The position numbers and the translations under genes are program-made. The notes beneath the pieces are model-generated. The model was not told where the DNA came from. It was given only the letters and a program-made list of their open reading frames with translations, and ran no database searches. 64,000 nucleotides of DNA, taken from Bacteroidaceae bacterium (GTDB taxonomy: Bacteria; Bacteroidota; Bacteroidia; Bacteroidales; Bacteroidaceae). Shown in pieces: positions 3,687 through 64,000 of this stretch (positions are counted from its first letter, which is position 1; each line of letters begins with the position of its first letter). The stretch covers positions 13,004 through 77,003 of the forward strand of contig JAFZFF010000046.1 in NCBI GenBank assembly GCA_017556045.1, read 5' to 3'.

Positions 3687-4502
3687 TTATAGCTCAAACT
3701 TGGTGGCCTCGATCTGCTGCTCGAGGGTATCATCAAGTGGGGCGAAGAAGTCGTAGCCGGTGAGGGCCTCTATGTCATCGACGGTGCGGGCATAGTAGGT
3801 GAGGGGCTTCTTGCCTGCCTTGTTCTCGAAGACGAAGCCATAGGCCTGCGGGCTTCCGCTCTCGAGGCCGAAGAGGACTACCTTGAAGAAGGCTTCGGGG
3901 ACGCGTACCTGATGCTTGTCGCCGATGTATTGGGGATTGGTGCGCTTGAGCAGGGGACCACAGGCGACGTATACGGTAGTGCCTGTCTCGGCCCATCGGC
4001 GGCATTGTTGCTCGAGGGTGCTCCACACACCTGCATTGAGGTTGTGATTTTGCGGACACATATTGGTCATGTAGAACGACTCGTCCATGGCGCGCCAGTG
4101 GTAGCGGTTGTCGGCCGCAGGACACATGTGGCCACGGTCATACCCACTACCCGTATAGTCCTCGGTGGTGACGGCCAGGTCGGCAGGTAGCTCGGGGTCG
4201 GGCTGGAAGTTGTTGCTACGGCTTTCGCGCTCGATGAGCTCGTCGGCGGTGATGCTCCACGCTACCCAGTTGGGGATGTTGGTCTTGGCATTGAACGATA
4301 CGGTGTAGTTTGTCTTGCGCAGTATCTGCTCGGGGGTGCCCTTGGCGGTGATGGGTATCTCTATGCCTGTCGCCGTCGTGGTATATGCCTTGTGTGGGAC
4401 TTTGTTTACATTACTGCTGATGATATCAGCTATGGGGAGGTCAAAGTAATAGCACAGACCTACTATAATCACCACGAGGGTGCTCAATAATTTCTTCTTC
4501 AT
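3687..4502 (-). CDS. Secreted DNA/RNA non-specific endonuclease (NUC, beta-beta-alpha-Me)
   Basis: DRGHMCPAADN motif. I moved the start to the ATG giving the signal-like MKKKLLSTLVVIIVGL. Confidence 0.8.
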   Translation of the reverse strand: MKKKLLSTLVVIIVGLCYYFDLPIADIISSNVNKVPHKAYTTTATGIEIPITAKGTPEQILRKTNYTVSFNAKTNIPNWVAWSITADELIERESRSNNFQPDPELPADLAVTTEDYTGSGYDRGHMCPAADNRYHWRAMDESFYMTNMCPQNHNLNAGVWSTLEQQCRRWAETGTTVYVACGPLLKRTNPQYIGDKHQVRVPEAFFKVVLFGLESGSPQAYGFVFENKAGKKPLTYYARTVDDIEALTGYDFFAPLDDTLEQQIEATKFEL

Positions 4503-4705: not shown

Positions 4706-6871
4706 ATGAGAAAATTAAGCTTGTTAGCCTTGGCATTGTCAGCGACGATGGCCCTACAGGCAAAGGACATTCTCGTAAACACACCCAACACGAGTCTGCT
4801 ACTGAAAGCTGATGAGGGACAGCCCCTTCACATTAGTTACTATGGCGAACGTATCGATAATGTGAGCCAAGTGTATAACGCCTATAGCCTATGGGAACAT
4901 GCCTATCCTGCCTTTGGCGCAGGATGTCAGAACGTCCCTGCACTCAGCGTGAAGCATTTTGATGGTAACATGAGTACCGAGTTGGTATACACCAACTATG
5001 CGGAGAAGGCTGAGGCAAACTCAACCCTCCACACCATCACGATGAAGGATAAGGCGTATAACTTCTACGTGGACGTATGCTACCGCGCATACAACAATAG
5101 TGACGTGATTGAGACATGGACCGTCATCCGTAACGAGGAGAAGAAGCCTGTCACCCTGCTCAAGTATGCCAGTGGATACATGCCTTTCCGTCAAGGTAAC
5201 GCTTGGGTGAGCCACCAGCATGGCGCGTGGGGCTCAGAGTCATACATCTACGAGGAGCCTCTGCAGGCAGGTGCTTTCGAGGTTCACGATGTGAATGGTG
5301 CGCGTAACGCTATGCGCAACCGCCCCAATATCATGATTTCGCTCGATGGTAAGCCCCGCGAGAACGATGGTCGCGTCATCGGTGCTGTGCTCTGCTGGAG
5401 TGGTCCCTACCGTATCACCATCGATACCCGTAACCAAAAGGAGCATCACCTCATAGCAGGTATCAGCGAGGCACACTCAGAGTATACCCTCAAGAAGGGC
5501 GAGAGCTTCACCACTCCCGAGCTGGCCTTTGCCTATAGCGACGAGGGTATGGGTGGCGTGAGTCGTAGCTACCATCGCTGGGCACGCCTTAATAATAAGG
5601 TACATAATGGCACCGCACTGCGCAAGATCCTGCTCAATAGCTGGGAGGGCGTATACCTCAACGTAAGCCAAGAGGGCATGGAGAAGATGATGGATGGCAT
5701 CAAGGAACTTGGTGGCGAGTTATTCGTGATGGACGACGGTTGGTTTGGTGACAAGTACCAACGCTCTGTAGATGACTGCGCATTGGGTGACTGGGTGACA
5801 GATACCCGCAAGCTCCCCAATGGCGTACCTGCACTGGAGAAGGCTGCTACTGAGCGTGGCCTCAAGTGGGGTATATGGATTGAGCCCGAGATGACCAACA
5901 CCAAGAGTGAGCTCTATGAGAAGCACCCCGACTGGATCGTATGTCACCCCAACCGCACACCTATCACAGGTCGTGGAGGCACACAGCTCATCCTCGACAT
6001 GAGCAACCCCGAGGTGCAGGATTTCGTGTTCGGCGTGGTGGACAATATCATGAAGGAGACCCCCAATACCTATTATATCAAGTGGGATGCCAACTTTGAG
6101 ATTCAGAACTTCGGTTCTAAGTACCTCAGCGGTGACAATCAGAGCCACCTCTACGTGGACTATCACCTTGGCTTGAAGAAGACCCTCGAGCGCATCCGTG
6201 CCAAGTATCCCGAGCTCGTAATCCAGTGCTGCGCCAGTGGTGGTGGTAGAGTCAACTATGGCCTCATGCCCTACTTCGATGAGTTCTGGGTGAGCGACAA
6301 TACCGATGCTCAGCAGCGCCTCTTCATCCAATGGGGTACCAGTATGTTCTTCCCTGCTTGCGCTATGGCACAGCACGTGAGCGCATCGCCCAACCATCAG
6401 ACAGGTCGTGTCATTCCCCTCAAGTTCCGCTTCGATGTGGCTATGACCGGACGTCTCGGTATGGAGATGAAGCCCAGCGACCTCACACCCAAGGAACTCG
6501 AGTATGCAAAGAACGCAGTAGCTACCTATAAGGAGATACGTCCTATCATTCAGCATGGTAATCAGTATCGTATCCTCTCACCCTATGACAAGACAGGTTA
6601 TGCCTCTGAGCTCTACATTACTGACGACAAGTCTGAGGCTATCTTCTTTGCTTATAAGTATGAGCACTACGTGAACCAGTTCCGTCCTCGCTTCCACTTT
6701 GCAGGTCTTGACCCCGATGCAACCTATAAGCTCACCGAGCTTTGCCGCAATGGCCGCACCGACCACTGGGAGGGCCGCACCTTCACCGGTAAGTTCCTCA
6801 TGAACCAGGGTGTGGAGATTGCCTTTGGTGGACAATTCTCAAGTAAGGTGATCCGTCTGGTCAAGCAGTAA
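4706..6871 (+). CDS. Alpha-galactosidase, GH36
   Basis: 721 aa with signal peptide, FVMDDGWFGDKY and YIKWDAN motifs typical of GH36. A TACATTTG -7 box lies about 75 nt upstream. Confidence 0.85.
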   Translation: MRKLSLLALALSATMALQAKDILVNTPNTSLLLKADEGQPLHISYYGERIDNVSQVYNAYSLWEHAYPAFGAGCQNVPALSVKHFDGNMSTELVYTNYAEKAEANSTLHTITMKDKAYNFYVDVCYRAYNNSDVIETWTVIRNEEKKPVTLLKYASGYMPFRQGNAWVSHQHGAWGSESYIYEEPLQAGAFEVHDVNGARNAMRNRPNIMISLDGKPRENDGRVIGAVLCWSGPYRITIDTRNQKEHHLIAGISEAHSEYTLKKGESFTTPELAFAYSDEGMGGVSRSYHRWARLNNKVHNGTALRKILLNSWEGVYLNVSQEGMEKMMDGIKELGGELFVMDDGWFGDKYQRSVDDCALGDWVTDTRKLPNGVPALEKAATERGLKWGIWIEPEMTNTKSELYEKHPDWIVCHPNRTPITGRGGTQLILDMSNPEVQDFVFGVVDNIMKETPNTYYIKWDANFEIQNFGSKYLSGDNQSHLYVDYHLGLKKTLERIRAKYPELVIQCCASGGGRVNYGLMPYFDEFWVSDNTDAQQRLFIQWGTSMFFPACAMAQHVSASPNHQTGRVIPLKFRFDVAMTGRLGMEMKPSDLTPKELEYAKNAVATYKEIRPIIQHGNQYRILSPYDKTGYASELYITDDKSEAIFFAYKYEHYVNQFRPRFHFAGLDPDATYKLTELCRNGRTDHWEGRTFTGKFLMNQGVEIAFGGQFSSKVIRLVKQ

Positions 6872-59549: not shown

Positions 59550-60710
59550 TTAAATCAAGAATCCGAGCAGCACACCTGCGGCACAAGCTGAACCGATAAC
59601 ACCAGCTACGTTGGGACCCATGGCATTCATGAGCAGGTAGTTGGTGGGGTCGGCCTTCTGACCTTCATCGTGAGAGATACGAGCAGCCATAGGTACGGCT
59701 GATACGCCAGCATTACCGATGAGCGGATTGATCTTCTTACCCTTGGGCAAGAAGAGGTTCATGAACTTCACGAACAATACGCCACTGGCTGTAGCGATGA
59801 CGAAGGCGGTGATACCTACGAGCAAGATCTTCAAGGTAGAGGGAGTGAGGAACTCGCTGGCCTGTGTAGATGCACCTACGGTGAGACCGAGAAGGATGGT
59901 GATACAGTTGATCAGGGGACCCTTAGCAGCCTCGGCCAAACGACCTGTAACGCCACTTACGTTCAAGAGGTTTCCGAAGAAGAGCATACCCAACAGGGGC
60001 AAGCCACTGGGCACGATGAAGGCGGTGAGCAACAGACCTACGATGGGGAAGATGATCTTCTCTGTCTGTGATACCTGACGGGGAGCCTCCATGCGGATGA
60101 GGCGCTCTTTCTTTGTAGTGAGCAGGCGCATGATGGGGCGCTGAATCACGGGCACGAGGGCCATGTATGAGTATGCACACACGGCGATAGCTCCCATGAG
60201 GTTGGGCGCGAGCTTCGATGACAGGAAGATGGCGGTAGGACCATCGGCACCACCGATGATGGCGATACCTGCTGCCTGGTCGGGCTCAAAGCCGAGAAGC
60301 AATGCAATAATGTAAGCTGCGAAGATACCGAACTGAGCAGCAGCACCTACGAGCATCATCTTGGGATTGGCGATGAGCGGAGCAAAGTCGGTCATGGCAC
60401 CAATGCCGAGGAAGATGAGGGGCGGGTACCAACCGGTCTTAACACCCTGGTAGAGGATGTTGAGCACTGAACCCTCTTCATAGAGACCGATTTCAAGACC
60501 GGCATCTGCCTTAAAGGGGATGTTACCCAAGATAATACCAAAGCCTATGGGCACGAGCAACAGAGGCTCCCAGCCCTTCTTGATGGCGAGTGTGATGAAG
60601 AGGCATCCTACCGCAATCATCACAATATGGCCAACCGTAGCATTGGCAAAACCGGTGTATTGCCAAAAGTCTACGAGGTTATTTCCGATAAAATTAAAAA
60701 AGTCGTTCAT
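59550..60710 (-). CDS. mmdB: Na+-translocating decarboxylase beta subunit
   Basis: 386-aa polytopic membrane protein with the OadB/MmdB-type sequence and operon context. Confidence 0.88.
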   Translation of the reverse strand: MNDFFNFIGNNLVDFWQYTGFANATVGHIVMIAVGCLFITLAIKKGWEPLLLVPIGFGIILGNIPFKADAGLEIGLYEEGSVLNILYQGVKTGWYPPLIFLGIGAMTDFAPLIANPKMMLVGAAAQFGIFAAYIIALLLGFEPDQAAGIAIIGGADGPTAIFLSSKLAPNLMGAIAVCAYSYMALVPVIQRPIMRLLTTKKERLIRMEAPRQVSQTEKIIFPIVGLLLTAFIVPSGLPLLGMLFFGNLLNVSGVTGRLAEAAKGPLINCITILLGLTVGASTQASEFLTPSTLKILLVGITAFVIATASGVLFVKFMNLFLPKGKKINPLIGNAGVSAVPMAARISHDEGQKADPTNYLLMNAMGPNVAGVIGSACAAGVLLGFLI

Positions 60711-60720
60711 GTTATTGATG

Positions 60721-60875
60721 GACCCCCTCTAACTCCCCCTCTATGGGGAGGATTCAGCCTTCGCGGAGGAGCAGAATGAGGTTGTTTTATTGATTTTACA
60801 TCTTAAATAATTGATATTCGCCCTGCATGGTTTCTCCCCATAGAGGGGGAGATGCCCAAAGGGCAGAGGGGGTCT
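60721..60875. repeat. 155-bp nested-palindrome element, copy A (within the mmd operon)
   Basis: Outer IR GACCCCCTCT/AGAGGGGGTC and inner IR CTCCCCCTCTATGGGGAG/CTCCCCATAGAGGGGGAG. It is near-identical at both ends to 63867..64000. Confidence 0.85.
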
Positions 60876-61313
60876 TTATCCAAGTGTGATGATGTCAGTG
60901 CCTTCTGCGATTGACTGACCCTTCTCTACGTTGATAGATACTACGGTACCCTCGCGGTCTGCATTGATGTTGTTTTCCATCTTCATTGCTTCGAGGATGG
61001 CGATGGTCTGACCCTTGCTTACTGCGTCGCCTACCTTTACCTTGATATCGAGGATGACACCGGGCAGAGGAGCCTTGATACCTGCGCCACCAGCTGCGGG
61101 AGCAGCCTTAGGTGCGGGAGCGGCCGCGGGAGCTGCAGCTGCAGGAGCTGCGGCGGGACGTGCTACGGGTTTGCTTACTGCGGGCTTGGCCGGACGGTCG
61201 AGCTCTACTTGGTATGACTTGCCATTGACGGTAACGTTGGCCTTGTTACCTTCGAGTTCTTCTACGGCTACATTGTATTCGTTGCCGTTGATTTTATACT
61301 TATATTCTTTCAT
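60876..61313 (-). CDS. mmdC: Biotin carboxyl carrier subunit of the decarboxylase
   Basis: EAMKMEN biotinylation motif and an Ala/Pro linker. ATG at 61313 (the ORF-track start at 61331 is TTG inside the heptamer array). Confidence 0.85.
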   Translation of the reverse strand: MKEYKYKINGNEYNVAVEELEGNKANVTVNGKSYQVELDRPAKPAVSKPVARPAAAPAAAAPAAAPAPKAAPAAGGAGIKAPLPGVILDIKVKVGDAVSKGQTIAILEAMKMENNINADREGTVVSINVEKGQSIAEGTDIITLG

Positions 61314-61325
61314 GTCTTCCAAAAT

Positions 61326-61362
61326 TTTCAATTCTCAATTTTCAATTTTCAATTCTCAATTG
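61326..61362 (-). repeat. Intercistronic heptamer array, 5 x (R)AATTGA on the coding strand
   Basis: Plus-strand TCA at 61328, 61335, 61342, 61349 and 61356 gives TGA every 7 nt on the minus strand. Confidence 0.9.
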
Positions 61363-62267
61363 TTAGCATGTGTACGAGTCAGCATACGCCAGCTTGATTC
61401 GCCACCATTGATGGTGAGGATATCACTCTCTTCATCGTGTACGTTGCCGAAATGCTCGTGCAATGCCATGCAGATGGCTGCCATCTCTTCGTCGTTAGCG
61501 TCGCCCTTGGTTGCGGGTGCTTCGGGAGCAGGAGCTGCCTTAGGAGCGGGAGCCTTCTTGGTGCTTGAGATGGTGCTTGCAAAGATCTTGCCGATGATAG
61601 CGAAGAGCCACCAGAGGATAGCAAGAGCTGAGAATACTACCGCCATACACATCACGGTCATACCGAGGCCGAGGCTATCCATACGCTTGAACTTGGCCAC
61701 CTTGCCTTCGCCCTGCTCTACGATATTGGTAGCTGCGGGGGTCACGTTGTCGGCAGTCACGATGCGCCATTCGCCTACGCCGTCCTTAGCGCGAGCCCAT
61801 GACTGGTTTTCGCCGAGGGCGGGCACGGTGACTGAGTCGAGTAGGGTGGTGCCGTTAGCATCGTACAGAGCAATCCAGTTTTCGGTGCTGTCTTTCAATG
61901 TAAAGTTCGTGTGGAAGATACCGCGCTTGGGAAGCTCGTCGGCGAAGAAGAGCATCTTCTGCTTACCCTCAATATGGGTGTCTACGCTTCCCGAAGGTAT
62001 CTGATACATCATCTTGATGCGCTCGGGTGCACTGAGCTCCTTGTTCAGCACGGCGCGATTGGTCGTGAGGAAGCAGTTGCGTGCGTTCGCCGAGGCAAAG
62101 GCATCATTATGAAATTCTATCCATGCCGAACGGCAGCCATACTCGTCGACGATGCTGGCTGTGTTGGTCACGAGAATCTCATTAAACTTGAGGTTCTTGG
62201 CACCCTGGGCAAAGCCCGCGGTGGTAGCCAAGAAAACCATTAGTGTTGTTAATATCGTTTTTTTCAT
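61356..62267 (-). CDS. OadG-family subunit with N-terminal lamin-tail-like domain
   Basis: Signal peptide, an LTD-like N-terminal region (FNEILV...), a TM helix, an Ala/Pro linker and an OadG-like C-terminus. ATG at 62267 (the track start at 62276 is TTG). Confidence 0.7.
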   Translation of the reverse strand: MKKTILTTLMVFLATTAGFAQGAKNLKFNEILVTNTASIVDEYGCRSAWIEFHNDAFASANARNCFLTTNRAVLNKELSAPERIKMMYQIPSGSVDTHIEGKQKMLFFADELPKRGIFHTNFTLKDSTENWIALYDANGTTLLDSVTVPALGENQSWARAKDGVGEWRIVTADNVTPAATNIVEQGEGKVAKFKRMDSLGLGMTVMCMAVVFSALAILWWLFAIIGKIFASTISSTKKAPAPKAAPAPEAPATKGDANDEEMAAICMALHEHFGNVHDEESDILTINGGESSWRMLTRTHANN

Positions 62268-62310
62268 AATTGTCAATTTTCAATTATCAATTATCAATTG
62301 TCAATTATTA
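62268..62310 (-). repeat. Intercistronic heptamer array, 5 x AATTGAN on the coding strand
   Basis: Plus-strand TCA at 62273, 62280, 62287, 62294 and 62301. It is preceded by the mmdA TAA stop at 62308-62310. Confidence 0.9.
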
Positions 62311-63858
62311 CAGAGGTATATTGCCGTGTTTCTTCTTCGGGTTCTCAAGCTTCTTGGTCTGCAACTCTGCCAATGCGCGGATGATGCGGAAGCGGGTGTT
62401 GCGAGGCTCGATAACGTCGTCGATGTAGCCGTACTTGGCAGCATTGTAGGGATTGGCGAAGAGCTTGGTGTACTCGGCCTCCTTCTCGGCGATGAATGCC
62501 TTGGGGTCTTCCTGCTCCTTAGCCTCCTTAGCGTAGAGTACAGCAGCAGCACCACTTGCACCCATCACGGCAATCTCAGCAGAGGGCCATGCATAGTTCA
62601 TGTCGCCACGGAGTTGCTTACAGCTCATCACGATGTGGCTACCACCGTATGACTTACGCAGAGTAACGGTTACCTTAGGTACGGTAGCTTCGCCGAAGGC
62701 GTAGAGCAACTTAGCACCGTGGAGGATAACGGCATTGTACTCCTGGCCTGTGCCGGGGAGGAAGCCGGGAACGTCTACGAGGGTCACCAAGGGGATATTG
62801 AAGGCGTCGCAGAAGCGTACGAAGCGAGCAGCCTTGCGTGAAGCGTTGCAATCGAGCACGCCAGCGAATGCCATGGGCTGGTTAGCTACGATACCTACTG
62901 ACTCGCCATTGAAGCGTGCGAAACCTACGATGATGTTCTTCGCATAGTCTTTCTGTACCTCGAGGAACTCGCCATTGTCGATGATAGCGCCGATAACCTC
63001 ATACATATTATATGCCTTGTTGGGGTTGTCGGGGATAATCTCGTTGAGGAGGTCTTCCTTGCGGTCGATGGGGTCGGTGCATGCTACGCGGGGAGCCTGC
63101 TCCATATTGTTCTGAGGCATGTATGAGAGGAGTTTGCGGATCATTGCCAATGCCTCTTCCTCGGTCTGAGCGGTGAAGTGTGTCACACCTGACTTTGATG
63201 AGTGTACTGATGCGCCACCGAGCTGCTCCTGGGTAACGTCTTCGCCGAGCACGGTCTTAACAACGGCAGGACCTGTGAGGAACATGTATGAGGTACCTTC
63301 CATCATCAAGGTGAAGTCGGTGAGGGCGGGTGAATATACGGCACCACCTGCGCAAGGGCCGAAGATACCTGAAATCTGAGGAATCACACCTGAAGCCATG
63401 ATATTGCGCTGGAAGATCTCTGAGTAGCCAGCGAGCGCGTTGATACCCTCCTGGATACGTGCACCACCCGAGTCGTTGATGCCGATGACGGGAGCACCCA
63501 TCTTCATGGCAGCATCCATAATCTTACAGATCTTCATCGCCATGGTCTCTGAGAGTGAGCCTGCGTTTACGGTGAAGTCCTGTGCGAATACGTATACCAA
63601 GCGGCCGTCGATAGTACCATAACCGGTTACTACACCATCACCGAGGGCTTGCTTCTTCTCCATGCCGAAGTTGTGGCAACGGTGGGTGACAAACATGTCC
63701 ATCTCTTCGAATGAACCCTTGTCGAGCAACATATCGATGCGCTCACGTGCGGTATACTTACCCTTCTCATGCTGCTTTTCAATGGCTTTAACGCCGCCGC
63801 CCAAACGGGCTTTCTCGCGCAGCTCTACGAGTTCTCTGATTTTATCTAATTGTGACAT
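62308..63858 (-). CDS. mmdA: Methylmalonyl-CoA decarboxylase alpha subunit (carboxyltransferase)
   Basis: 516 aa, carboxyltransferase family throughout, in an operon with the biotin carrier and Na+ pump subunits. Confidence 0.9.
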
Positions 63859-63866
63859 AATGGGAG

Positions 63867-64000
63867 ACCCCCTCTAACTCCCCCTCTATGGGGAGGACTC
63901 AGCCTTCGCGGAGGAGTAGAATGAGGTTGTTTTATAGTTATACTTTTAATTTATTGTATTCGTCCCGTATGGTCTCCCCATAGAGGGGGAGATGCCCAAA
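63867..64000. repeat. Nested-palindrome element, copy B (cut by window end)
   Basis: It starts GACCCCCTCTAACTCCCCCTCTATGGGGAGGAYTCAGCCTTCGCGGAGGAG... as in copy A. Its right arm is CTCCCCATAGAGGGGGAGATGCCCAAA. Confidence 0.85.

Follow-up and report, generated by a model that had tools for sequence, protein, structure and literature searches.

A 155-bp element in the mmd operon of a Bacteroidaceae bacterium is very probably a non-autonomous palindromic mobile repeat of a REPIN- and RPE-like family, with a DUF559 nuclease as candidate mobilising enzyme

The 155-bp palindromic element that separates mmdC from mmdB in the window, the whole 64,000-nucleotide stretch of Bacteroidaceae DNA analysed here, is very probably a non-autonomous mobile repeat of a family resembling both REPINs and the Rickettsia palindromic elements (RPEs), for which a small DUF559 nuclease, of the Vsr-like PD-(D/E)xK type, would act in trans as the mobilising enzyme. 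Its description as a selfish repeat that entered the operon twice, each time at a tiny intercistronic gap, and has been tolerated there, is well supported. We observed the dispersed repeat family itself, an insertion polymorphism between related operons, the genomic contexts of the copies, covariation within a hairpin of the modules and a physical association with DUF559 genes. Within the open-access literature, where reports on Prevotella MITEs were bulk censuses only, this repeat family of herbivore-gut Prevotella-like Bacteroidales is previously undescribed.

Structure and predicted folding of the two copies in the mmd operon

The mmd operon lies on the minus strand, and the Pfam matches obtained across it (Glyoxalase, Carboxyl_trans, OAD_gamma, Biotin_lipoyl and OAD_beta) make the mmd gene names reasonable. 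The first copy of the element, copy A (60721-60875, minus strand), has mmdC, encoding the biotin carboxyl carrier (Biotin_lipoyl; 60876-61313, minus strand), upstream and mmdB (OAD_beta; 59550-60710, minus strand) downstream. The mmdC stop codon (60876-60878) is one base from the element and the mmdB ATG, at 60710, is 10 nt from its other end, thus confirming that the element fills the gap between the two genes, as the original prediction had described. A long antisense ORF at 61015-62004 (plus strand), running over the Ala/Pro-rich linkers encoded by mmdC and mmdD, is spurious.

Copy A is a near-perfect palindrome of nested type, with an outer inverted repeat of 10 nt (GACCCCCTCT at 60721-60730 and AGAGGGGGTC at 60865-60874) and an inner one of 18 nt (CTCCCCCTCTATGGGGAG at 60733-60750 and CTCCCCATAGAGGGGGAG at 60834-60851), both 100% complementary, together with a small GCCC-AAA-GGGC hairpin on the plus strand at 60854-60864; all three had been described in the original prediction. 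The repeats are organized in two terminal modules. The long module (60834-60875, minus strand) is the 5' one on the transcribed strand and consists of A-GACCCCCTCT, a GCCC-TTT-GGGC hairpin, the dinucleotide AT and the main hairpin CTCCCC-CTCTAT-GGGGAG. The short module (60721-60750, minus strand) is the 3' one, reads CTCCCC-ATAGAG-GGGGAG followed by TT and AGAGGGGGTC, and is missing the small hairpin. Between them lies a variable core with an AT-rich centre (60751-60833, minus strand), whose stretch beside the 3' arm (CTCCTCCGCGAAGGCTGAATC) is kept both in the second copy of the window and in the related locus L037.

This second copy, copy B (63866-64000, minus strand), is cut by the window end and occupies the whole space from the stop codon of mce, the methylmalonyl-CoA epimerase gene, to the start of the downstream mmdA, encoding the carboxyltransferase (62308-63858, minus strand). 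Its complete form is seen in the near-identical contig L001 at 6717-6866, where its first base is shared with the TAG stop of the epimerase gene and its other end lies 7 nt ahead of the mmdA ATG. Since the OAD_gamma-like proteins encoded at 61356-62276 of the window and at 8492-9376 of L001 differ by one residue, the two sequences are near-identical but separate assemblies. Copies A and B have identical arms and different AT-rich centres (83% mean column identity), in agreement with what had been noted from the letters of the window, and both share the same orientation, 7-10 nt ahead of a start codon. When the 18-mer was searched with up to three mismatches, four matches were found in the window against 0.00 expected, two of them in copy B. 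The copies lie about 3 kb apart in one operon with no others in the 64 kb, an unusual pattern that counts against random insertion, and the identity of the arms beside differing cores could reflect selection or gene conversion acting on the arms, that is, a cause other than transposition.

The RNA of the transcribed strand of copy A was predicted to fold with an energy of -75.8 kcal/mol (z = -6.3 against shuffled sequences), and the plus strand gave z = -7.9. The element differs from known structured RNAs and terminators: an Rfam search at both gathering and permissive thresholds returned no match near the gathering score, and an intrinsic-terminator scan returned none at copy A, where the stem is followed by CAUCAAUAAC AUG with no U-tract. 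A sigma-70 promoter scan, based on a model ill-suited to Bacteroidota, also returned none at copy A.

The element belongs to a dispersed family of hairpin modules

The original prediction had proposed to estimate copy number by searching for the arms. A census of the exact 18-mer in species-representative genomes identified at least 119 stretches carrying it, a copy number which rules out that the palindrome arose by chance or as an artefact of local duplication. Among the matches listed, almost all hosts were MAGs of Bacteroidaceae and Prevotellaceae from the ruminant or horse gut, with 4-6 contigs per MAG, and the exact 18-mer had no match in 761 kb of human-gut Prevotella mmd loci. A scan of IMG/VR for the repeat gave three matches, indicating that phage carriage is not a main route of spread. 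The exact 18-mer was also present in three MAGs labelled Terricaulis, Lachnospiraceae and Nitrospirota (L020, L087 and L114), as well as in the IMG/VR contigs L213-L215; these matches could be due to chance, contamination or transfer.

The at least 119 loci contain 162 terminal modules of 30-41 nt, built in the order: the box GACCCCCTCT, a spacer consisting of either 2-6 nt or a 13-nt piece with a 4-bp hairpin, and the hairpin CTCCCC-CTCTAT-GGGGAG. The commonest form has the spacer 'AA' (24 copies), and the 13-nt spacer occurs in 57 modules with 43 distinct sequences. Over these 43 distinct modules the small hairpin is 98.8% paired, its variants (GCCC/GGGC, GTCC/GGAC, GCCT/AGGC, GGCC/GGCC and GTCT/AGAC) showing compensatory CG, UA and GC pairs. 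Covariation across the copies, a check put forward together with the prediction, was indeed detected in the small hairpin, with 22 double-change cells compared with 6.8 +/- 1.8 after shuffling and none of 500 shuffles reaching as high a value.

Modules are commonly joined in inverted doublets. Forty of these are homotypic, 34 measuring about 75-188 nt and six 500-565 nt, and many are heterotypic, pairing the module described above (type 1) with a type-2 module, CCCCTCC-CTCTAT-GGAGGGG, which keeps its own hairpin and pairs imperfectly with type 1. The main hairpins of the two types have thus retained their stems with different sequences. Many apparent singletons proved to be heterotypic doublets with one arm of each type, and in those of L003, L006, L009, L019, L024, L025, L035, L037, L040, L108 and L112 the long-range duplex is mismatched. 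At L089, two elements (2109-2232 and 3810-3928) each lie within a further outer palindrome, GAGAACACAGAG... / ...CTCTGTGTTCTC, which suggests nesting inside another repeat family. Short tandem motifs of the GTAAAT/CATAAAT type are frequent next to modules (L012, L014, L016 and L043) and likewise in the AT-rich mce-mmdA leaders of human-gut Prevotella (L145, L161, L163, L166 and L193).

The alternative offered by the original prediction, a MITE tolerated inside an operon, holds as far as a dispersed, multi-copy palindromic insertion is concerned. A classical MITE, that is, an internally deleted derivative of an insertion sequence (IS) sharing its terminal inverted repeats with a DDE transposase, is nevertheless a highly improbable origin. 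The family does have the terminal inverted repeats, small size, non-coding nature and multiple copies expected of such elements, but no target-site duplication was visible in the flanks of 40 elements, where the recurrent A...T and AA...TT flanks are complementary and hence represent an extension of the inverted repeat and not a duplication. Moreover, the end hairpins are under compensatory change, which is unexpected if terminal inverted repeats are recognised in double-stranded form, the cores of different copies are unrelated, and the versions bearing an ORF encode DUF559 proteins only, not DDE enzymes, with no parent IS carrying a transposase in the fetched loci.

Insertion history of copies A and B

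Presence or absence of the element was evaluated by comparing 80 mmd operons from metagenomes, in about 60 of which both mmdC and mmdB were located. In nearly all of these about 60 related operons the mmdC-mmdB gap is 1-4 nt, typically TAA-N-ATG. In L121, whose MmdA is 99% identical, the epimerase-mmdA junction is empty and reads ...GCGAAAAATAA-ATCTT-ATG (TAA + ATCTT + ATG). In L037, with an MmdA 98% identical, an unrelated 94-nt spacer is found at the mce-mmdA junction and the element is present only between mmdC and mmdB, where its 3' arm and the adjacent core are identical to those of copy A and its 5' arm is different. The comparison of relatives that had been suggested as a check returned one empty site, one occupied site and minimal gaps in nearly all other operons, and judged by these alignments both window copies are insertions missing in relatives. 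The sole empty site, in L121, belongs to DNA that has diverged by about 12% (estimated by eye), so that the ends given here for the element are provisional; no target duplication was visible at copy A or copy B.

As L037 possesses a homologue of copy A and not of copy B, copy A must have been inserted before the two lineages separated, and copy B afterwards. The core of copy A found no match at other loci among the at least 119, apart from L001, which carries both window copies; copy B shares this lineage-specific core, indicating that the whole doublet was copied as a unit. Copy A would thus have entered the very short mmdC-mmdB gap before the separation from the L037 lineage, and copy B would have been inserted later into the mce-mmdA gap as a whole unit including the core.

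Genomic contexts and in-frame insertions

The contexts of the family were assigned with a codon-usage gene caller reproducing the gene calls of L001, according to which the loci are 83% coding. Among the matches listed, 42 of 118 units were located inside ORFs and 6 overlapped an ORF end; the intergenic units comprised 10 lying no more than 12 nt from genes on both sides, 29 within the same distance of a gene on one side and 31 elsewhere. The flush intergenic units resemble those of the window, with 1-7 nt from the stop codon to the element and 5-10 nt from the element to the ATG. Insertions may survive either in the space separating a stop codon from the start that follows or, when in-frame and stop-free, in permissive protein loops, and selection sparing stop-to-start insertions would account for the exact fill of the gap.

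Elements inside ORFs translate into a recurring peptide, an 11-residue stretch followed by SLPIEGE(V/M)..RGS. In the Mfd gene of L034 a 126-nt element gives a 43-residue insert and exactly that segment is missing in homologues 84-92% identical, so that the in-frame insertion is proven at the level of sequence comparison. The PDB alignment of the insert-bearing Mfd began only downstream of the insert. Other Mfd homologues have similar inserts at other sites, and two orthologous GT2-like proteins, 70% identical, bear one 75-nt insert each at different sites. Differing module-like peptide inserts were seen at several positions in the Mfd of several Prevotellaceae lineages (P0121, P0132 and P0135), and the 565-nt 'element' of L023 (3041-3605) corresponds to two separate inserts within the Mfd gene.

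The position of the long arm relative to the short arm, judged by hand with respect to transcription, was 5' in five cases and 3' in four. The lack of bias speaks against a family-wide RNA function tied to one strand, and bears on the first suggestion of the original prediction, an intercistronic RNA device acting on mmd, in which the hairpin would be selected for segmental stability, RNase III processing or the coupling or uncoupling of mmdB and mmdA. We consider such an operon-specific regulatory RNA improbable. In its favour, the transcribed strand forms a very stable long hairpin, the two copies are oriented alike just ahead of a start codon, the element has been kept at mmdC-mmdB in two species-level lineages, and the stem, having no U-tract and hence being no terminator, has to be transcribed through. 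Nearly all of the related operons, however, do without the element and have mmdC and mmdB coupled at 1-4 nt, and copy B is missing from the two closest relatives, L037 and L121. Furthermore, the long-range hairpin is not conserved in the orthologous element of L037 (z = -1.5), the minimum-energy fold of which consists of local hairpins, and members of the family are also found within ORFs and in unrelated operons, with either orientation and no Rfam match.

As a selfish repeat, the element would be a passenger of the mmd mRNA, forming a long hairpin with the stop codon of the preceding gene and the start codon of the following one at the base of its stem. Effects of this hairpin on decay, RNase III processing or coupling would then be by-products, and incidental effects of the element on mRNA stability, processing, reinitiation or translational coupling are possible. 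The repeats uncouple genes of core fermentation operons, namely the propionate-pathway mmd operon and leu, and subunit stoichiometry could change as a result.

Association of the modules with DUF559 nuclease genes

An ORF of about 122-127 codons lies within each of six doublets of about 500-540 nt, the nucleases of the longer versions ranging over 122-130 aa. The encoded protein matches DUF559 (PF04480) with E = 2.6e-34, its nearest solved structures being 3HRL (E = 6e-20) and, weakly, 3R3P (E = 0.009). Residues D59, E70, D72 and H76 are invariant in the DUF559 proteins, consistent with a PD-(D/E)xK or Vsr-type active site. All six genes, as well as a human-gut homologue 63% identical, occupy one syntenic locus with the order leuA-[module-DUF559-module]-leuC-leuD, where the neighbouring genes are 87-92% identical and the nucleases 66-80% identical. 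A DUF559 gene was found neither in the 64-kb window nor in L001, and the window also lacks leuA and leuC. At L013 (4155-5285), a longer module variant flanks leuD on both sides as inverted copies of 115 nt that are 99% complementary (4297-4411 and 5049-5163), with additional outer arms, giving for the leu operon the order leuA-[module DUF559 module]-leuC-[element]-leuD-[element]-cimA.

More distant DUF559 homologues (45-57% identical) were located at six other distinct loci, always between co-oriented genes: between uxuA and an SDR gene, between gyrB and coaD, in an RND-ABC operon, and upstream of a Gate-domain transporter gene, of an N-acylglucosamine-epimerase-like gene and of a DAHP-synthase operon (L212), the last with one module-like arm only. 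At five of these six loci the gene has its own inverted repeats of 20-45 nt, which display the same architecture, a C-rich box plus a short hairpin, with a different sequence. A further homologue, 62% identical, lies downstream of a RarA-like gene in L211, preceded by two type-1 modules on a contig that ends at the ORF. Inverted repeats scoring 17 or more flanked eight of nine testable DUF559 genes (seven distinct loci) and 7 of 533 other genes, the latter being drawn from loci themselves chosen for containing repeats. Type-1 modules accompany DUF559 only at one orthologous locus and at L211; the association thus derives from few independent events and the case leans mainly on the co-varying flanks of the distant homologues. 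Dozens of DUF559 homologues were seen only on contigs of 500-1000 nt, a length similar to that of the long element, which suggests that assemblies break at the flanking multi-copy repeats; more generally, the repeats appear to break metagenome assemblies.

From this arrangement we infer that the DUF559 nuclease may mobilise the modules and carry out the chemistry of their insertion. It is the likeliest mobilising factor, a proposal that we regard as close to evenly balanced. In related genomes its gene stands between two of these modules at leuA-leuC much like a RAYT gene between REP sequences. A different mobiliser, either an unseen transposase or recombination, with DUF559 as a homing-endonuclease-like gene or a passenger lodged in pre-existing doublets, appears rather unlikely. 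This explanation would fit the weak similarity to 3R3P, a Vsr-type 'mobile intron protein', and the constant location of the gene in the core between the arms, where a symmetric enzyme recognising both of them would be expected to cut; the type-1 DUF559 unit is, in addition, single-copy and syntenic instead of multi-copy, and one arm has been lost at L212. On the other hand, a survey of about 0.9 Mb of loci bearing the repeats yielded no further candidate enzyme next to the modules or between them, a homing gene should have reached many dispersed doublets, most of which are empty, and a single-copy, vertically inherited enzyme accompanied by dispersed repeats is the pattern of RAYTs and REPINs (PMC5581495, PMC3116915).

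Comparison with known palindromic repeats and nucleases

Correia elements (CREE/NEMIS) of Neisseria and the ERIC/IRU sequences of enterobacteria measure 100-155 bp, have inverted ends, are co-transcribed within operons and form long RNA hairpins. Correia elements duplicate a TA target and possess characteristic 26-bp ends, together with IHF and promoter features. The element described here is similar to both groups in size, inverted ends, position within an operon and long hairpin, but differs from Correia elements in having ends of the GACCCCCTCT type and flanks other than TA...TA, with no duplication.

The habit of inserting in-frame is shared with the RPEs (Ogata et al. 2000/2002, as reviewed in PMC10969869). 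As in that case, palindromes of about 75-150 bp lie in-frame and stop-free in unrelated housekeeping genes and also between genes, encoding a recurring peptide. The sequence and the host are unrelated, so the analogy is one of behaviour only, and the review (PMC10969869) mentions no enzyme for RPEs, whereas a candidate DUF559 protein is physically linked to the present family. Palindromes inserted in-frame into housekeeping proteins, for instance Mfd, had been best known from Rickettsia and also occur in abundant rumen bacteria, with a bearing on protein annotation and evolution.

The anatomy of the family is closest to that of the REPIN-RAYT system, in which REP/BIME sequences are associated with a REP-associated tyrosine transposase (Bertels & Rainey 2011, PMC3116915; PMC5581495). 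Short hairpin units showing compensatory change are paired in inverted orientation into a nested palindrome, tens of dispersed copies are often found between operon genes with no target duplication, and a small nuclease gene lies between inverted units, being single-copy and syntenic across species with flanks that co-vary with the protein. Unlike RAYTs, which are HUH Y1 transposases, the enzyme is of the DUF559, Vsr-like PD-(D/E)xK type. The location is also not strictly extragenic as it is for REPINs, given the units inside ORFs; no conserved GTAG-type tetranucleotide was noted, the hosts are Bacteroidota and heterotypic doublets are common. The family combines the anatomy of REPINs with the in-frame habit of RPEs. 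The DUF559 clade might be the resident enzyme of a REPIN-like system in Bacteroidales, in which one syntenic, vertically inherited gene has its cognate doublets spread genome-wide, a reading that we advance tentatively, at slightly less than even confidence. If true, this would mean that the RAYT-REPIN lifestyle, known from Proteobacteria, arose a second time by an independent mechanism, with another enzyme fold and in a dominant gut phylum, and would provide a first, testable role for DUF559, a widespread family of unknown function. The open-access full-text literature contained few mentions of DUF559 and nothing linking it to repeats or mobile elements.

Vsr and DUF559 proteins form one nuclease fold family (PMC3424549), and the ORF of the long elements shares this fold family with Vsr-type homing endonucleases (I-Bth0305I-like, 3R3P) and with the DUF559 structure 3HRL. 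Unlike the genes of the homing endonucleases, that of the putative nuclease described here lies outside introns and is flanked by cognate hairpin modules. The DUF559 gene of E. coli K-12, ycjD (L207, 4250-4850), was also checked for the module architecture and showed no mutual inverted repeat. It is co-oriented with sapF, which it directly follows, and has a hairpin with a 16-bp stem upstream, a C-rich/G-rich hairpin over its stop codon and, downstream, about 40 nt of its 3' end repeated in direct orientation.
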